From assembly GCF_003334785.1 (NCBI RefSeq), contig NZ_QOWV01000039.1: a stretch of DNA of 6,249 bases; one strand, given 5' to 3'. Position 1 is the first letter of the stretch; every line of letters starts with the position of its first letter. Below, one piece after another: positions 50 through 6,249 of the stretch. Under the pieces are notes generated by a model. It was not told where the DNA came from and made no database searches. It saw nothing but the letters and a program-made list of their open reading frames with translations. The translations under genes were made by a program, and so were the position numbers. The DNA comes from Escherichia coli. Lineage in GTDB: Bacteria > Pseudomonadota > Gammaproteobacteria > Enterobacterales > Enterobacteriaceae.

Positions 50-379
50 TCACCAATAAATAAGCGTCAATACGGTGCTCCGTTGACGCTTACAGAGAAT
101 GCGTTTGACCGCCTCGCTATATACTTCCGAGCGTTCTCTTTTCCCAACAGAAATCACGAAAACGACAACTTTCTCGTCTATAACCTGGTATACAAGGCGA
201 TAGCCTGAAGACCGGAGCTTAATCTTGTAACAATCAGGCATACCACGGAGCTTGTTTGCTTCAATCCGGGGTGACTCAAGTACTTCAACCAGCTTCTTTT
301 TCAACTGTTCACGTACCGTCGAGCCCAGCTTTCGCCATTCCTTTAGTGCCCGCTCGTCAAAATCCAGAAAATACGCCAT
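50..379 (-). CDS. relE: RelE mRNA-interferase toxin (RelE/ParE family), 109 aa; first 95 aa match E. coli RelE as recalled, followed by a 14-aa C-terminal extension
   Basis: Translation MAYFLDFDERALKEWRKLGSTV...VYSEAVKRIL is recognisably RelE; start codon shares one base with the relB stop (TGATG); the gene sits directly downstream of relB on the same strand. Confidence 0.9.
   Translation of the reverse strand: MAYFLDFDERALKEWRKLGSTVREQLKKKLVEVLESPRIEANKLRGMPDCYKIKLRSSGYRLVYQVIDEKVVVFVISVGKRERSEVYSEAVKRILCKRQRSTVLTLIYW
53..91 (-). terminator. Stem-loop (9-bp stem 62-70/83-91, inner CGG/CCG pairs) followed on the minus strand by UAUUUAUU; probable terminator or mRNA fold at the relE 3' end
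   Basis: Inverted repeat AAGCGTCAA...TTGACGCTT read directly; U-rich tract follows on the minus strand. The extended relE ORF reads through it. Confidence 0.4.
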
Positions 380-618
380 CAGAGTTCATCCAGCGTCACA
401 CGTACTGGCTTAGGATTACGAAGCCGTTCTTTCACTATCTCCACAAGTTCAGCATCTTCATCACTCAGGAGTGTCTGTTTGAACGGCAAGCGTTCATTGT
501 CAGCGATATACTCGAGCATGAGACGAAGCGCTTCAGAAGGAGTTACACCCATTTTTTCAAGCGCGGCGTAAGAACGCGCTTTAAGTTCATCGTCAATACG
601 CAGGTTAATGCTACCCAT
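379..618 (-). CDS. relB: RelB antitoxin, 79 aa
   Basis: Translation MGSINLRIDDELKARSYA...PKPVRVTLDEL matches RelB as recalled; GAGGTG Shine-Dalgarno about 6 nt upstream of the ATG; overlaps the relE start. Confidence 0.92.
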   Translation of the reverse strand: MGSINLRIDDELKARSYAALEKMGVTPSEALRLMLEYIADNERLPFKQTLLSDEDAELVEIVKERLRNPKPVRVTLDEL

Positions 619-700
619 GTCTTACACCTCTTGTAATTACAAATGTCATTACAAGTATCGCACTACAACATGCTTAGGGCAAGTCACGAAGGAAGTCAGA
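619..700 (-). promoter_or_regulatory. relBE promoter region with relO-type operator (perfect 12-bp palindrome TTGTAATTACAA at 631-642, plus partial repeat to 655)
   Basis: Palindrome read directly, immediately upstream of relB; consistent with RelB/RelE autoregulation at an operator overlapping the promoter. Exact -35/-10 positions not resolved by eye. Confidence 0.6.
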
Positions 701-948
701 AAGTAGTCGTAAGAACGGTGATCACTGTCCGCTTTGTGCCAGGAGCAGCCATTGCTAAGTCCATCCTGTATTGTGCAGGTCAGCTCGTTTTTAAAGAGTC
801 CGGCCATCATCTTACTGGTACAGACACCATATACTTTGTGACGGTCAGGCTACATATGCACAACTCAACTTATTCATCTATTTTTTGCTTTAGCATGTCA
901 GTGTTGCTTTCTCGTCGGCGGGTGAGCGGTGACCTGACCTGTCGATAA
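643..948 (+). CDS. ydfV: Hypothetical protein, 101 aa, in the position and of the size of E. coli ydfV (divergent from relB)
   Basis: ORF of the expected length between relB and flxA; no recognisable Shine-Dalgarno; the start lies inside the relO operator. Protein sequence not independently recognised. Confidence 0.35.
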   Translation: MSLQVSHYNMLRASHEGSQKVVVRTVITVRFVPGAAIAKSILYCAGQLVFKESGHHLTGTDTIYFVTVRLHMHNSTYSSIFCFSMSVLLSRRRVSGDLTCR

Positions 949-1100
949 AGGAACGTAACACGTTTTATGCAACACCCGCATGCGGCAGAAAATTATTGCC
1001 GAACGTTTACCCCTGTCAACAAGCTTTACTTTCTGAGGCGCGCCAGCCCGCGAGGAAAACAATCTGAACATCAAACAATTAATGACACAAGAAATACGAT

Positions 1101-1127
1101 TAAAGATTTTTTTGTGCATGCCGATAG
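1101..1127 (+). promoter_or_regulatory. sigma28 (FliA)-type promoter: TAAAGATT, 11-bp spacer, GCCGATAG
   Basis: Matches the sigma28 consensus TAAAGTTT-N11-GCCGATAA at 7/8 and 7/8 with the exact spacer, about 24 bp upstream of the flxA start; flxA is a known FliA-dependent gene. Confidence 0.6.
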
Positions 1128-1150
1128 TGCTTTTTTAAAAGGAGAAATCT

Positions 1151-1483
1151 ATGTCTGTCACAATTCAGGGAAATACCTCAACCGTTATTTCAAACAACTC
1201 CGCCCCGGAAGGAACATCAGAAATAGCCAAAATCACAAGACAAATTCAGGTGCTGACTGAAAAGCTTGGGAAAATCTCATCGGAAGAGGGGATGACGACA
1301 CAGCAGAAAAAAGAAATGGCTGCATTGGTACAGAAGCAAATTGAAAGCCTCTGGGCTCAACTGGAGCAGTTGTTAAGGCAGCAGGCAGAGAAAAAGAATG
1401 AAGACGCGACAGTTCAGCCTGATAAAAAAGAAGAGAAAAAAGACGATACAAATACCGCTGGCACCATTGATATTTACGTCTAA
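1151..1483 (+). CDS. flxA: FlxA-like protein (FliA-regulated), 110 aa
   Basis: AAGGAG Shine-Dalgarno about 6 nt upstream of the ATG; translation MSVTIQGNTSTVISNNSAPEG... with a Q/E/K-rich coiled-coil-like centre; gene order relB-ydfV-flxA as in the Qin prophage. Confidence 0.85.
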   Translation: MSVTIQGNTSTVISNNSAPEGTSEIAKITRQIQVLTEKLGKISSEEGMTTQQKKEMAALVQKQIESLWAQLEQLLRQQAEKKNEDATVQPDKKEEKKDDTNTAGTIDIYV

Positions 1484-1497
1484 GTGACAGCCGTATT

Positions 1498-1522
1498 GTG
1501 GCCCTCATCGGGCCACTTTTCG
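1498..1522 (+). terminator. Rho-independent terminator downstream of flxA
   Basis: GTGGCCC-tcatc-GGGCCAC hairpin followed by TTTTC, 15 bp after the flxA stop. Confidence 0.6.
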
Positions 1523-1570
1523 CCATCAGCCTTTTCTTTAAAGACATATTATCTTTGTATCATTTCTGAT

Positions 1571-3419
1571 AGTTAACATTACAAGATATAAGTAATGGAC
1601 GCACTCCCAATTAGTCTATTTAAATCGCCACGAGTTTAACTGACAACCCATGATCAATTATGAATTGCAACTATTTCTGTAGTCACTTTTGTGGGGACAG
1701 TCCACAAAACTGCCAACTTCCGCTTCTTGCTCTTAGCGGACATTAGCATAGGCTATTTACCATAACGCCTCATTACGCGCACCGCCCAGACTGACTCAGC
1801 GCGTTTCTGGCATATCCCCGGTAAAACAAGTAACAAACCACCCGAAAATGAACACCAGAAACGCGACTTAAGAATCTACCCTATGAATGGATATGCACTC
1901 AACCGAATCGATCTTGGTTTCAATCTTTTTTATCGGGATCAGGCTTCTTTTTAGGTAACTTCGGGGGCTTAACTTGCTGATGACTTTGCGTTCGGCGCGT
2001 AAGCCAGGGATGGTCAGCTTTAGGTTTAACATAGTATTTTGAGCGTAAATCAATACGGGCATTATCCACTCGTTCATGGACACTCTTTTCATCATCCAGT
2101 GGTATAGGCTCCGGGCCATCAACATACTTTTCCCAGCCCAGCGCTTTCCCGTCATACAGAACGTTAATTTCACCGTCAAAGTTCTCGCATACAGTAACAA
2201 CCGAATGCCTAAGTCGATATCCCCGGCCCTCACTGCGTACCTGAAACGCACTGCTTTTGTACTGGAAAGTGAGATTTTTAGACAGAACGCGCTTCGCCTG
2301 TAGGCTGAAGATATAACCCAGTTCCTCTTCAGAATGGTGCACATCAAGATGAGCATTATCAGTAGTACGAGGCGACGTAGCGAACCGGTTGTTATAGGCT
2401 TCAATAAAGGTCGGCAACCATGCATTTGCTGTTTCAATATCACTGATATTCTGAAGCCGCATTTCTTTGACCAGCCTGTCCTGTAGTGTCTGATTGGCGC
2501 GCTCTACCCGCCCTTTTGCCTGCGGGCTGTTGGCATGGATTGGCTCGATGCCCAGTGTCTTTATCGCACGAGTGAACTGGGTCAGCTCACCTTCCCGCTC
2601 TGGGTTATTTACCCTGAATATACTGTGTCTATCAGAGTAGAGAGCGAGCGGTACGCCATGATCATTAAGGTAACCCCGGAGGGTTTCCATGTAAGCCCGG
2701 GTTGTTTCAGCAGGCACAAAACGCAACGCCATCAACGCACTGGTGGCATCATCAATGAAAACGATCAGTGTACATCTGGGGCCTCGATTTTCAAACCAGT
2801 CATGAGGTGAGCCATCAATCTGGATCAGTTCACCGTAAGATGGTCGTCGCATGCGGCGTTGATATATACGGGCAATTTTACGACGGCGTTCACGCCATAA
2901 CCCCTCTTCTATCATCCACTTTCTGAGAGTTTCAACGGATAAAGATAAACCGTGTATCTCGCGCAATTTTTCGCACGCAAACGTAGGTCCAAAATCAGCG
3001 TAACGGCCTTTGAGGAGTGAAATTACTGTTGCTCTGAATTCAGTAGAAAAGGAATTATTAGGACGCTTTCCACGTCGGTGGGAAACCAGACCAGAAGGCC
3101 CTTCATTTCTATACCGTTGCACCAGACGTTTAACCTGCCGAATAGAAATGCCAATGCGTGCCGCAGCTTGTTCCTGAATAATCTGAAGTCGGTGGAGTTC
3201 CTTATGACTCATCGTAACAGTCTCTTTGATCATGAAAAATCCCCCAGAGAATTGTCTGGGGACATTTTAGAATGGTTCAAAGGGGACATTACAGCTTGGT
3301 GTTAACAATAGCCTGCTTCTCCGTGCCTTTCGGCACGTAAGAGGCTAACCTACATGTGTCTAGCATGAAATTGGCCTCAGATTAATGTTAAGCGTCTTGC
3401 AGGACGCGTAATGTTAACT
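1571..3419 (-). mobile_element. ISNCY-family (IS1202-group-like) insertion sequence; boundaries tentative
   Basis: Boundaries are placed at a perfect 12-bp inverted repeat (AGTTAACATTAC at 1571-1582; GTAATGTTAACT at 3408-3419) bracketing the transposase gene. No target-site duplication was found and a 12-mer match could arise by chance in 6 kb. Confidence 0.35.
1920..3233 (-). CDS. ISNCY-family DDE transposase (IS481/IS1202-like), 437 aa
   Basis: N-terminal helix-turn-helix (AARIGISIRQVKRLVQRY); integrase-type catalytic core with D in IQIDGS, D in FIDDATS and E in SPQAKGRVERANQTL; lysine/proline-rich C-terminal tail. An alternative ATG at 3212 (MSHKEL...) is in frame. Confidence 0.9.
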   Translation of the reverse strand: MIKETVTMSHKELHRLQIIQEQAAARIGISIRQVKRLVQRYRNEGPSGLVSHRRGKRPNNSFSTEFRATVISLLKGRYADFGPTFACEKLREIHGLSLSVETLRKWMIEEGLWRERRRKIARIYQRRMRRPSYGELIQIDGSPHDWFENRGPRCTLIVFIDDATSALMALRFVPAETTRAYMETLRGYLNDHGVPLALYSDRHSIFRVNNPEREGELTQFTRAIKTLGIEPIHANSPQAKGRVERANQTLQDRLVKEMRLQNISDIETANAWLPTFIEAYNNRFATSPRTTDNAHLDVHHSEEELGYIFSLQAKRVLSKNLTFQYKSSAFQVRSEGRGYRLRHSVVTVCENFDGEINVLYDGKALGWEKYVDGPEPIPLDDEKSVHERVDNARIDLRSKYYVKPKADHPWLTRRTQSHQQVKPPKLPKKKPDPDKKD

Positions 3420-3567
3420 GGGGCTTTTCTCTATCTGCCGTTGGTGTCCATGCCCGAGGCAGATAGCCTCAAGCACCCGCAGTCATTCTACTTAACTAAG
3501 ATTTCCCCGCAAACCGTTTTTGTCCAGCACAGTAAATATCCAACTAAACCAATGGAGTTCGCTGTAT

Positions 3568-3747
3568 TTACCGCCAGTATTCAATGCACATGACCGCCAT
3601 GAACACCCCTAAAAAAAGGGCATTTATATATCCAAATATTAATATCAAAACATCAACTTTTTCCATATACCTTGCTGTGAAGATGATGGGCATACATGAT
3701 GCGAACAACCAGAACGCAACAAACAAAAACTGCAATGCGTTTTTCAT
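3568..3747 (-). CDS. Small hydrophobic membrane protein, 59 aa, two predicted transmembrane helices
   Basis: Consensus AGGAGG Shine-Dalgarno 5 nt upstream of the ATG at 3747; translation MKNALQFLFVAFWLFASCMPIIFTARYMEKVDVLILIFGYINALFLGVFMAVMCIEYWR. The ORF-track version (start 3786) has no ribosome-binding site. Confidence 0.45.
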   Translation of the reverse strand: MKNALQFLFVAFWLFASCMPIIFTARYMEKVDVLILIFGYINALFLGVFMAVMCIEYWR

Positions 3748-4001
3748 TATTCCTCCTACAATCAATGTGCAATTACATTTAAACACACCTCAATTTGGCC
3801 GGACATATAAATATCTAAACCAGAAAAAATCACTTACATAGCGTTACAAACTCTTTAGTCTAAAGGTTCATCGTAAAACATTCCCCATACTTATCAGTCC
3901 GTTCCGCGCCAGGTAGCTCATTGCCTTATCTGGCAACCTGTAATCAGGTTTCCGCTTTTTCAGTTGGCTGGTCGTTTAACCGACATAGTTAATCCATTAA
4001 T

Positions 4002-4289
4002 CTAGTTGCCGGATGTTGGTGGATTTTCGCGTTTTAGTTGTTCATAAAAGTGCACAGCTTTAACCAGTTCTTCTGATGTAACTGGGACTGGTGAGGCAGT
4101 GAATAAGGCCTGAATTTGATAGTTCGGCCTGTCGTTACAATCCTCTTTTTTCGGTACATATTTCCAGTCACCAGACCACTACTTCCCCTGAAAGTCCGTA
4201 ACGCCTTTTTTCACGTAGCGATATCGCCATGCCACTGGTTTTGCTTGCCCCGCCGTTTCATGCCCTTCCTGATAATTAATCTCGCTCAT
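4002..4289 (-). pseudogene. Small prophage-like ORF (about 95 codons) interrupted by an in-frame amber codon at 4179-4181
   Basis: Reads MSEINYQEGHETAGQAKPVAWRYRYVKKGVTDFQGK-TAG-WSGDWKYVPKKEDCNDRPNYQIQ...; its ATG overlaps the TGA of the upstream ORF (ATGA). Confidence 0.25.
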
Positions 4290-4477
4290 TCATCGCCCCA
4301 CTCATCACAATATGCTTCGACCGGAGTTTTTCCCGCTTCATAGTCATCACGCTAGGATTCGACATCAGCAGCACTTCCACCGCGTAACTCACCATAGTCC
4401 ATTAATAGTTCATCCCGCTCTTCAAAACTGATGTTATATTTAGCTGAACAAAAATCAGCCACTTTGTTCTTCCTCAT
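4286..4477 (-). pseudogene. Small acidic ORF (about 63 codons) interrupted by an in-frame amber codon at 4352-4354
   Basis: Reads MRKNKVADFCSAKYNISFEERDELLMDYGELRGGSAADVES-TAG-RDDYEAGKTPVEAYCDEWGDE; an internal GTG at codon 6 is preceded by GAGGAAG; stop overlaps the next start. Confidence 0.2.
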
Positions 4478-4899
4478 CGTCTTTTATTTCGTGGTATGAG
4501 TAATTGCAGTAGTTAAAGAAAATTTCTTATGCTCCGTCATGAATTTCCTCAGGTGTTGCGTCATCGTCCACTTCGAATACATCCTCAAAATCTCCACCAG
4601 CTATTCCCGTTTCAATAATAATTTTGAACTTTCGCATTTCACTACCGCCCTTTCGGGCGGCCTCCTGATGTTCTGAGGGTGCAGAAATCCATCCGGTTAA
4701 GGATTAAATTTTATTTACAGAACTGAATTTAATTATTCAGATATACGTATCTGTAGCCTTACGAATCTACTCACTGGATGCCTCTTTCATAAAAATAATC
4801 CAGTGGGTTTTATCGTTTTTTCCCTGTTCGTTGACAGATAACAGGTTTTCTGTCTGTCAGTGCCAGAATCTGGCTTACCGGTATTTGCGTTTCATTCCA

Positions 4900-5892: not shown

Positions 5893-6249
5893 CGGACACT
5901 ACCATTTGTTCTTTTTTTAAGCAGCCATCTGATGATATTTTTCCCTGAAGGCTGCCGGGGAGATATTCCCCAGACGAGAGTGACGACGCTGACGATTGTA
6001 GAAAATCTCAATGTATTCCCGTATTACTGAGATGGCTTCATCCCGGTTATTAAAACGATAGTGGCTCAGGCTCTCATTTTTCAGCGTTCCCCAGAAGCTT
6101 TCCATCGGAGCGTTGTCGTAACAGTTACCTTTACGCGACATTGATGTTTTCAGACCAAACTGCTCCTGTATGACCCGGTAATCGTATGCGCAGTACTGTG
6201 AACCTCGATCGGAGTGGTGGATTAGCACGGCAGGTGGGCGCTGGCTCCT
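5874..6249 (-). mobile_element. IS3-family insertion sequence, partial (continues beyond window); terminus near 5874-5900
   Basis: Transposase OrfB C-terminus ends at 5917; the adjacent GGCAATAGCGGACAC (5885-5899) resembles the IS3 terminal repeat as recalled (GCAATAGTGGACAC). Exact terminal base uncertain by about 10 bp. Confidence 0.6.
5917..6249 (-). CDS. IS3-family transposase OrfB (integrase core), C-terminal part; 5' end lies outside the window
   Basis: Translation ...VLIHHSDRGSQYCAYDYR...MSRKGNCYDNAPMESFWGTLKNE...YNRQRRHSRLGNISPAAF carries the IS3-family DDE-region signatures (HSDRGSQY; KGNCYDNAPMESF); the frame stays open to the window edge. Confidence 0.9.
   Translation of the reverse strand, partial: RSQRPPAVLIHHSDRGSQYCAYDYRVIQEQFGLKTSMSRKGNCYDNAPMESFWGTLKNESLSHYRFNNRDEAISVIREYIEIFYNRQRRHSRLGNISPAAFREKYHQMAA

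Follow-up and report, generated by a model that had tools for sequence, protein, structure and literature searches.

The closest described relative of the element treated here is ISEsa1, an insertion sequence (IS) from Cronobacter sakazakii that ISfinder lists in the ISNCY / IS1202 group, as summarised in PMC10132070. Its published description gives a length of 1609 bp, inverted repeats of 15/22, no detected target-site duplication (TSD) and no known target (Harmer, Pong & Hall 2023, PMC10132070), and the tree in that paper puts it in a separate "no TSD" subgroup. Other members, namely ISTde1 (17 bp), ISShha1 (16 bp) and IS1202 itself (27 bp), make long duplications (at least 15 bp), with no target or cargo reported (PMC10132070). 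As for the neighbouring genes, the relB-relE-hokD (relBEF) genes of the Qin prophage of Escherichia coli K-12 have been reported to be co-transcribed (Gotfredsen & Gerdes 1998, cited in PMC5120126), and one group noted that relBE is "integrated" into hokD (Ramisetty & Santhosh 2016, cited in PMC6379469). The literature sees relBEF as a chromosomal or prophage toxin-antitoxin locus. Here we analyzed a 6,249-bp stretch of E. coli DNA (contig NZ_QOWV01000039.1 of assembly GCF_003334785.1; "the window" from here on), which corresponds to the Qin-prophage region and contains relE, relB, ydfV, flxA, a transposase gene (tnp), degraded prophage genes and an IS600 remnant. We propose, with a probability of roughly 90%, that positions 93-3307 of the window are the larger part of a composite transposon of the IS1202 family inserted in hokD. 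In the searchable literature, with subscription papers outside it, neither this transposon nor its ends, duplication or preference for hok were found described, nor was a vehicle for relBEF or ydfW as the remnant of a transposase.

The initial annotation had placed a discrete ISNCY-type element at 1571-3419, between two 12-bp inverted repeats, with the reservation that these were doubtful as termini and that the true ends might lie elsewhere. The reservation was well placed, since the ends found by comparison are one inverted repeat at 3282-3307 and another 64 nt beyond relE. Copies in other contexts, comprising plasmids L002 and L005-L008 (locus numbers are ours), 26 loci from a set of contigs with one genome per species and 58 loci retrieved from metagenomes by means of the end sequence, all diverge directly after ...GGGGACATTACAGCTTGGTGTTAACA (end ...GTGTTAACA). 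This transposase-proximal terminus, the left inverted repeat (IRL; 3282-3307, minus strand, 5'-TGTTAACACCAAGCTGTAATGTCCCC), starts with TGT. A simple insertion would predict the Hok open reading frame (ORF) directly beyond the transposase module; it is absent there, which speaks for a longer unit. The far flank of the transposase is not hok, and copies with different hok leaders share that far flank, so that a longer unit was suspected on this ground too. When the E. coli chromosome L001 was compared with the Salmonella IncI plasmid L035, a single common block with 99.8% identity was obtained, starting with TGTTAACACC, running through tnp, flxA, ydfV, relB and relE, and stopping 64 nt after the relE stop codon at ...CTGCTTTGCGTTGACA.

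The right inverted repeat (IRR) reads ...GCGTTGACA and lies just off the left edge of the window; it was looked for within the window and is absent, an IS66-type insertion having cut the last 59 bp of the transposon, together with hokD, out of the stretch (without that insertion IRR would sit at 34-59). IRL and IRR match in inverted orientation at 19/26 positions, with TGT...ACA as outer ends. The inner part of IRL (GGGGACATTT...) is repeated subterminally at 3258-3276 (minus strand; our direct-repeat family D10), GGGGACATT being found in two direct copies at 3258 and 3282. At the IRR end the subterminal counterpart is GAGATGTCATG, with a spacing of 25 versus 24, and the counterparts of GGGGACATT are GGTGACACTT and ATGACATCT, similarly spaced. 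A repeated inner part near each end has been described for IS1202-family elements (PMC10132070), and the subterminal repeat is probably a second transposase-binding site. From end to end the order of parts is IRL, tnp, a boundary hairpin, the cargo (flxA, ydfV), relB, relE and IRR, and the element measures 3274 bp here, or 3301 bp when a 27-bp deletion in tnp is absent.

The element is flanked by a perfect duplication. One copy of the 15-bp sequence GGAGAAGCAGGCTAT occupies 3308-3322 (minus strand) and the second, outside the window, lies directly before hokD; the sequence consists of the hokD Shine-Dalgarno region plus the "AT" of the start codon, and in L001 it is followed by G AAG CAG..., the hokD ORF. 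In the IncI plasmid the duplicated sequence is TGGAGGGGCTATGAT, followed by the pndA ORF, while GGAGAAGAAGGCCAT is duplicated at hok in IncF plasmids (L037, L038) and in an IncHI2 plasmid (L097). Perfect duplications were found in L001 and 12 other loci, being 15 bp long at at least five sites and 16 bp at three (L045, L046 and L073), and copies outside hok (L078 and L026) carry 15-bp duplications of their own. The earlier statement that no duplication exists therefore stands for the arms of the 12-bp repeat, and falls for the longer element, which has a perfect one.

The sequence adjoining IRL is the hokD mRNA leader including the Sok target region (3307-3478, minus strand), which matches Rfam RF01794 over its full length with 104.1 bits (gathering threshold 59). 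The final AUG of the model, which is the hok start codon, aligns to 3309-3307; thus the element abuts the "AT" of that codon. When the window was scanned against Rfam over its full length (E <= 0.1), this hok/sok leader was the only hit. Window positions 3308-3600 are about 94% identical to uninterrupted loci annotated as hokD in thousands of E. coli genomes. At the present locus the leader is not contiguous with the Hok ORF, the transposon lying between them, and in L001 hokD follows relE-IRR; leader and hok ORF are contiguous only in empty sites, such as that of another E. coli chromosome (L036), which contains a single GGAGAAGCAGGCTAT. Moreover, when the 3301-bp block and one 15-mer were removed from the IncI site, the rebuilt sequence was identical at 400/400 positions in ColIb-P9 (NC_002122.1), and at least 80% of it was covered by 1799 plasmid records. 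In a set of 5426 complete E. coli genomes, the hokD-type site is uninterrupted in 4019, the relE-IRR-hokD junction occurs in 1165 and the leader-IRL junction in 691. We also considered the hok leader as a part of the mobile unit, and rejected it: leaders are about 70-94% alike, versus 97-100% for the element, and the empty sites contain the leader. In some strains, such as E. coli UTAK-15 (L003), a deletion that starts about 30 bp outside IRL takes most of the orphan hok leader, joining the equivalent of window position 3337 to that of 5309, that is, the IRL flank to a DUF977 gene. To the right of the leader the window holds an ORF for a hydrophobic protein of 72 amino acids (3568-3786, minus strand).

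Insertion prefers hok start regions. Among 40 distinct 45-nt flanks on the IRL side, 22 match the hok-leader hidden Markov model, and in another seven a hok-type 15-mer immediately follows the end of a further element, either an IRR belonging to a second transposon copy or an IS481-like element, so that 29 of the 40 distinct junctions were counted at a hok start and the other 11 have neither hok feature. The hok junctions follow AT or ATG or lie a few bases beyond, all in one orientation, and the targeted leaders differ (hokD, pndA, IncF, IncHI2 and others); these differing leaders and junction offsets point to independent, sequence-directed events and not to one inherited insertion. The duplicated segment of hok sites is usually preceded directly by the pentamer GGCAA. 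The same motif stands exactly 15 or 16 nt upstream of IRL in 4 of the 12 loci scored as non-hok (P about 7e-9), and a fifth has GGCGA; we therefore propose that GGCAA-N15/16 may be part of the recognised target.

Tandem arrangements, IRR-15mer-IRL with a single hok-type 15-mer between the copies, were observed in L064 (11640-11760) and L075 (minus strand, about 2660-2780); in these two loci the duplicated target remains a target even without an upstream hok leader. An IS481-like element encoding a transposase of 393 amino acids, with the end ...CTGTGTGAACTTACACA, abuts the hok-type 15-mer directly upstream of IRL; this association was seen in L043, L047, L050 (minus strand, 3637-4892), L060, L067, L080 and L086.

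Comparison of copies with different cargo divides the element into three modules. The 3.3-kb and 12.8-kb forms are 99.7% identical in their first ~1620 bp and 98.9% in their last 712 bp (relB-relE-IRR), with nothing shared between. In window coordinates the transposase module is 1715-3307, homology among cargo variants ending at 1715; the variable cargo segment, replaced in other copies, is 746-1714 (plus strand) and holds ydfV, flxA and 231 bp of non-coding DNA; and the relBE-IRR end module is present as 93-745 (minus strand), the full 712-bp module being the equivalent of 34-745. A hairpin of the form TCCGCT-N10-AGCGGA (1719-1740, minus strand; fold of -17.9 kcal/mol, z = -2.5) marks the boundary between transposase module and cargo, and in IncHI2 plasmids it is also the insertion site of ISEsa2. 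Within the cargo, flxA occupies 1151-1483 (plus strand) and is followed by the non-coding DNA, while ydfV (643-948, plus strand) has its first ~100 bp inside the relBE module. The antitoxin gene relB lies at 379-618 (minus strand; WP_000534858.1 in the annotation of L001, an identical protein being annotated on plasmid copies), and the toxin gene relE at 93-379 (minus strand), as given by our ORF list and by the RefSeq annotation of identical sequence in L001 (WP_000323025.1).

The alternatives to the flxA-ydfV cargo are genes for a cytochrome b561 and a CDF transporter, unnamed ORFs including one for a P-loop protein, or about 10.5 kb with ncrABCY and chromate resistance. The flxA-ydfV type is found on the IncF plasmid L037 (3307 bp) and in the metagenome locus L045 (about 3.3 kb, 16-bp duplication), and the ncrABCY and chromate-resistance type, with other genes, on the IncFII/IncR plasmid L038 (12,843 bp); L037 and L038 have the same duplication, GGAGAAGAAGGCCAT. 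Cytochrome b561 and CDF transporter genes are carried by the IncHI2 plasmid L097 (NZ_JBRAVH010000002.1; 6093 bp including an ISEsa2 insertion, perfect 15-bp duplication) and the metagenome locus L073 (about 4.6 kb, 16 bp), and the unnamed ORFs with the P-loop protein by the metagenome locus L046 (about 4.2 kb, 16 bp). Two copies sit outside hok. One, of 2180 bp (L078, 161-2340, from a metagenome), is without a transposase and carries a short-chain dehydrogenase, an alpha/beta hydrolase, relB and IRR, with a variant IRL (TGTTAAGACTAT...), a perfect 15-bp duplication and GGCAA before its site; the other, of 2575 bp (L026, a genome contig), has an internally deleted tnp, an ORF of 333 amino acids, relBE and a 15-bp duplication with 2 mismatches. 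Whatever the cargo, every complete element found ends in the relBE-IRR module.

The tnp gene (1920-3233, minus strand) encodes 437 amino acids and was assigned to the IS1202 family (ISEsa1). The ISNCY type given in the initial annotation agrees with this: the protein matches NCBIfam NF033594 (transpos_ISNCY_2) with 456 bits, against a cut-off of 250, over residues 14-368, and full-length copies are labelled "IS1202-like element ISEsa1 family transposase" in RefSeq. The full-length protein (446 amino acids) contains the Pfam domains HTH_28/29/23/32 and rve_3. Overlapping BLAST segments against full copies located, at 3172-3182 (minus strand), the scar of an in-frame deletion of 27 bp, which occurred between direct repeats of 11 bp and removes nine amino acids (ESINRHITQ) of the N-terminal helix-turn-helix region; the remaining protein alignment is identical. 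At one and the same chromosomal site the deletion allele occurs as an element of 3274 bp in L001, L009, L059, L068 and L070 and of 3273 bp in L055, and the full-length allele as one of 3301 bp in L003, L061, L065 and L084 and of 3302 bp in L052. RefSeq splits the 437-amino-acid ORF into ydfW (1920-2069), a K-12 legacy name for what are the last 49 tnp codons, and a "partial ISNCY transposase, missing C-terminus" (2190-3212). This split is an annotation artefact, and the current annotation misdescribes an intact gene. Transcription of tnp from the hok promoter was considered as well; a consensus scan and the predicted fold place a terminator-like hairpin (3241-3262, minus strand; 8 pairs, tail ATTTTTCATG) just before tnp, the 8-bp stem being followed by ATTTTTC and ending 7 nt before the ATG. 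This hairpin may insulate tnp from read-through coming from the hok promoter or from outside.

By its transposase, termini, subterminal repeats and long duplication, the element is to be placed in the IS1202 family, formerly the IS1202 group of ISNCY. The transposase is homologous to the family class of 394-507 amino acids (437/446 here), the TGT...ACA ends carry imperfect repeats of the family's ~22-29 bp range, a second copy of the inner repeat lies near each end, and the duplication is of a length known from family subgroups (3-5 bp or >15 bp); it fits the long-duplication class of ISTde1, ISShha1 and IS1202 and not the "none" published for ISEsa1. ISAjo2-type elements, which target pdif/dif sites (PMC10132070), are alike in their related transposase, TGT...ACA termini, subterminal repeats and orientation-specific insertion at a fixed distance; however, they are simple 1.5-kb ISs with 5-bp duplications placed 5 bp from the XerC site, whereas the present element has a 15-16-bp duplication, a hok initiation-region or GGCAA-N15 target, and passenger genes. 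Passenger genes between IS-type ends and site-specific target selection are also features of tIS and Tn7-like transposons, and the IS1202-family transposase is TnsB-like according to PMC10132070; unlike those systems, the present element is without TnsC/D/E-type accessory genes, and the one passenger present throughout is a toxin-antitoxin pair beside one end.

With ISEsa1 itself the element shares its transposase and IRL. In contrast to the published description, the unit is 3.3 kb (up to 12.8 kb) long, ends in relBE-IRR, makes a 15-16-bp duplication and prefers hok starts. With the 27 deleted base pairs restored, the stretch between IRL and the module boundary of the window comes to the published 1609 bp, and in plasmid L002 the distance from IRL to the point of divergence is exactly 1609 bp. 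That point is an insertion of ISEsa2 (IS110 family) at transposon coordinate ~1599-1610, equivalent to window ~1715-1726, at the boundary hairpin, and 330 plasmid records, among them that of a Cronobacter sakazakii plasmid, show the same IRL-to-ISEsa2 arrangement. What has been published as ISEsa1 is thus probably the transposase module only.

The alternative that survives best, though we consider it unlikely, takes ISEsa1 as an autonomous IS of ~1.6 kb (about 1713/1726 to 3307) that makes no duplication, with flxA-ydfV-relBE or other genes hitch-hiking, for instance through one-ended or read-through mobilisation. It agrees with the published 1609 bp, 15/22 repeats and lack of a duplication (PMC10132070), and the module boundary is sharp, at 1593-1620 of the transposon, with its hairpin and a weakly end-like sequence. 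However, that length coincides with the IRL-to-ISEsa2 distance of the 330 plasmid records, it is the long unit that has the 19/26 inverted repeat and the perfect duplication, and complete elements invariably end in relBE-IRR. A repeat of the IRL flank was sought 1.45-1.85 kb away in the 54 instances with enough sequence and was found in none (0/54), in agreement with the published "no TSD" for ISEsa1 (PMC10132070), nor was an empty site for a 1.6-kb unit found. As for inverted repeats of such a unit, the best pair near its predicted left end reached 9/22 by eye, the computed best pairs lying elsewhere; among 22-nt inverted repeats between 1560-1830 and 3240-3440 the best pairs (15/22) were internal (1807/3294) or in the hok leader, and none fits the boundaries.

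A further possibility, which we regard as very improbable, is that homologous recombination through the flanking hok leader and ORF spreads the block, the apparent duplication being part of the cassette. Both flanks are indeed hok sequences similar between replicons, and L037 and L038 share a site while differing in cargo. Nevertheless, the duplicated 15-mer varies with the target and is always the target's own sequence (hokD, pndA, IncF hok), junctions lie one base apart between otherwise identical leaders (giving 15 or 16 bp), insertions outside hok have their own duplications (L078, L026), and the tandem copies of L064 and L075 are joined as IRR-15mer-IRL.

Finally, the 12-bp repeat from which the initial annotation started is real as a sequence. 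AGTTAACATTAC occurs exactly at 1571-1582 (plus strand) and 3408-3419 (minus strand), bracketing tnp, with no further copy in the window even at one mismatch; its similarity does not extend outward (14/22 in the best 22-nt comparison), and 337 bp separate the tnp stop codon from the left arm, close to the ~340 bp of non-coding DNA first estimated. A direct repeat flanking the two arms was looked for and none was found. In 500 dinucleotide-preserving shuffles of the 6.2-kb window a perfect 12-bp inverted repeat appeared somewhere in 77% (mean of 1.9 seed pairs), and one bracketing tnp within the non-coding flanks in only 0.8%; the repeat is thus ordinary as such and mildly unusual by position, and on comparison with related loci it does not mark element termini. 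Its left arm belongs to non-coding cargo DNA on the flxA side, missing from cargo variants in which the shared transposase module stops at 1715, and its right arm is the 5' half of a conserved hairpin of the hok leader (RF01794), native and unchanged in the uninterrupted hokD locus L036. A discrete ISNCY element at 1571-3419 with an old or eroded duplication has hardly any probability and is refuted by the empty site: for it speak the exactness of the repeat, the 0.8% of shuffles and the presence in the 12-mer of both IRL core motifs (GTTAACA and ACATTAC), but from 3308 rightwards the sequence is the native leader of the never-occupied L036, copies in other contexts diverge at 3307 and not 3419 and cargo variants at 1715 and not 1571, and a perfect duplication exists at other coordinates. 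Nor does the published length of ISEsa1 (1609 bp, PMC10132070) fit 1571/3419, corresponding instead to ~1726/3307, and the comparison with related genomes recommended at the time revealed a discrete insertion, albeit a different one. We read the repeat as a resemblance of cargo DNA to the native hok leader, either by chance or as a relic, with no demonstrated role. The stretch 1571-1605, which holds the left arm, is loosely end-like (GTTAACA...AAG...GTAATG); as a relic IRR of a minimal IS it is suggestive by resemblance only, being absent from other cargo variants, and the question has no bearing on the main conclusion.

For the composite transposon, comparison among copies establishes its ends and duplication, its modular build, the empty sites and the preference in orientation and position. 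Several points weigh against this reading or narrow it. The support is comparative throughout, no transposition having been observed. L037 and L038 are related plasmids with the same duplication, which may reflect one insertion followed by exchange of cargo. Non-hok sites that bear on the GGCAA motif are few, and two of them (L057 and L091) are homologous targets. A weakly end-like sequence is present at the module boundary of the ncr version (...GCGGACGTTTGGTTGACGA), and a minimal IS may once have existed. That the database entry of ISEsa1 covers only the IRL-to-ISEsa2 stretch is probable from the exact length match. The copy in the window, in turn, is probably immobile or non-autonomous, given the nine-amino-acid deletion in the DNA-binding region and the displacement of IRR by the IS66-type element.

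By analogy with its family (PMC10132070), the DDE transposase, with its N-terminal helix-turn-helix, would bind the terminal and subterminal sites at each end, cleave at the TGT/ACA termini and join these to target cuts staggered by 15-16 bp. The element inserts in one orientation in the translation-initiation region of hok, and the duplicated segment extends from the Shine-Dalgarno sequence to the "AT" or "ATG" of the start codon. Beside IRL, the leader of hok with its Sok region would be left as an orphan (window 3307-3478), and the hok ORF would keep its ribosome-binding site and ATG because these are duplicated, now 64 nt + 15 nt downstream of relE as in the relBEF arrangement; going by this anatomy, it would then be read from the relBE promoter.

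Positions 1-92 of the window lie outside the transposon and form one end of an element of the IS66 family (ISEc23-like) that has interrupted the relE stop codon. From 93 onward the window is matched at 100% by complete E. coli chromosomes, to which 1-92 do not align. For 1-112, a match of 92.9% was obtained in 99 genomes, the matching gene being annotated as a transposase of the IS66-like ISEc23 family. The junction at 92/93, which 99 complete E. coli genomes share, reads ...CATTCTCTG|TAAGCGTCAACGG; it destroys the relE TGA, and the ORF continues to position 50 (109 versus 95 amino acids). On the other side, 4034-4700 contains frameshifted prophage genes (annotated as DUF7167 and hypothetical pseudogenes), and 5917-6249 is a remnant of the transposase of IS600 (IS3 family).

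The K-12 locus can be read in the same terms. K-12 relBEF has the same genes and the same 71-bp relE-hokD spacer, and this spacer holds IRR and the 15-mer. K-12 keeps only window 93-2104, everything from 2105 up to ydfX being deleted; it retains IRR, the 15-mer, hokD, relBE, ydfV, flxA and the last 185 bp of tnp ("ydfW"), and when checked for IRL it had none, the leader having been lost by the deletion too. Insertion of the transposon would explain the origin of the E. coli relB-relE-hokD operon. The relBE genes of K-12, together with flxA, ydfV and the pseudogene ydfW, would be transposon cargo, and hokD would be without its antisense control because the transposon split the locus, which bears on the reading of relBE and hokD phenotypes and deletions.

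As to the family, the present results settle the open point of its only family-level study (PMC10132070): the true unit of ISEsa1 is longer, with 15-16-bp duplications and a clear target. On balance we favour, with less assurance than the insertion itself, a wider picture in which a relBE-carrying family of IS1202 type homes via GGCAA-N15 onto hok starts on plasmids and prophages, uncoupling hok from its Sok-controlled leader and rewiring it behind relBE, so that one addiction module captures another, while moving cargo, metal-resistance genes included, among lambdoid prophages and plasmids of the IncF, IncI and IncHI2 types; K-12 relBEF would be a decayed copy. The results also mark hok start regions as a hot spot of insertion for a transposon which, on plasmids of clinical Klebsiella and Enterobacter, additionally brings nickel and chromate resistance; this is relevant to plasmid annotation and to tracing the movement of cargo.

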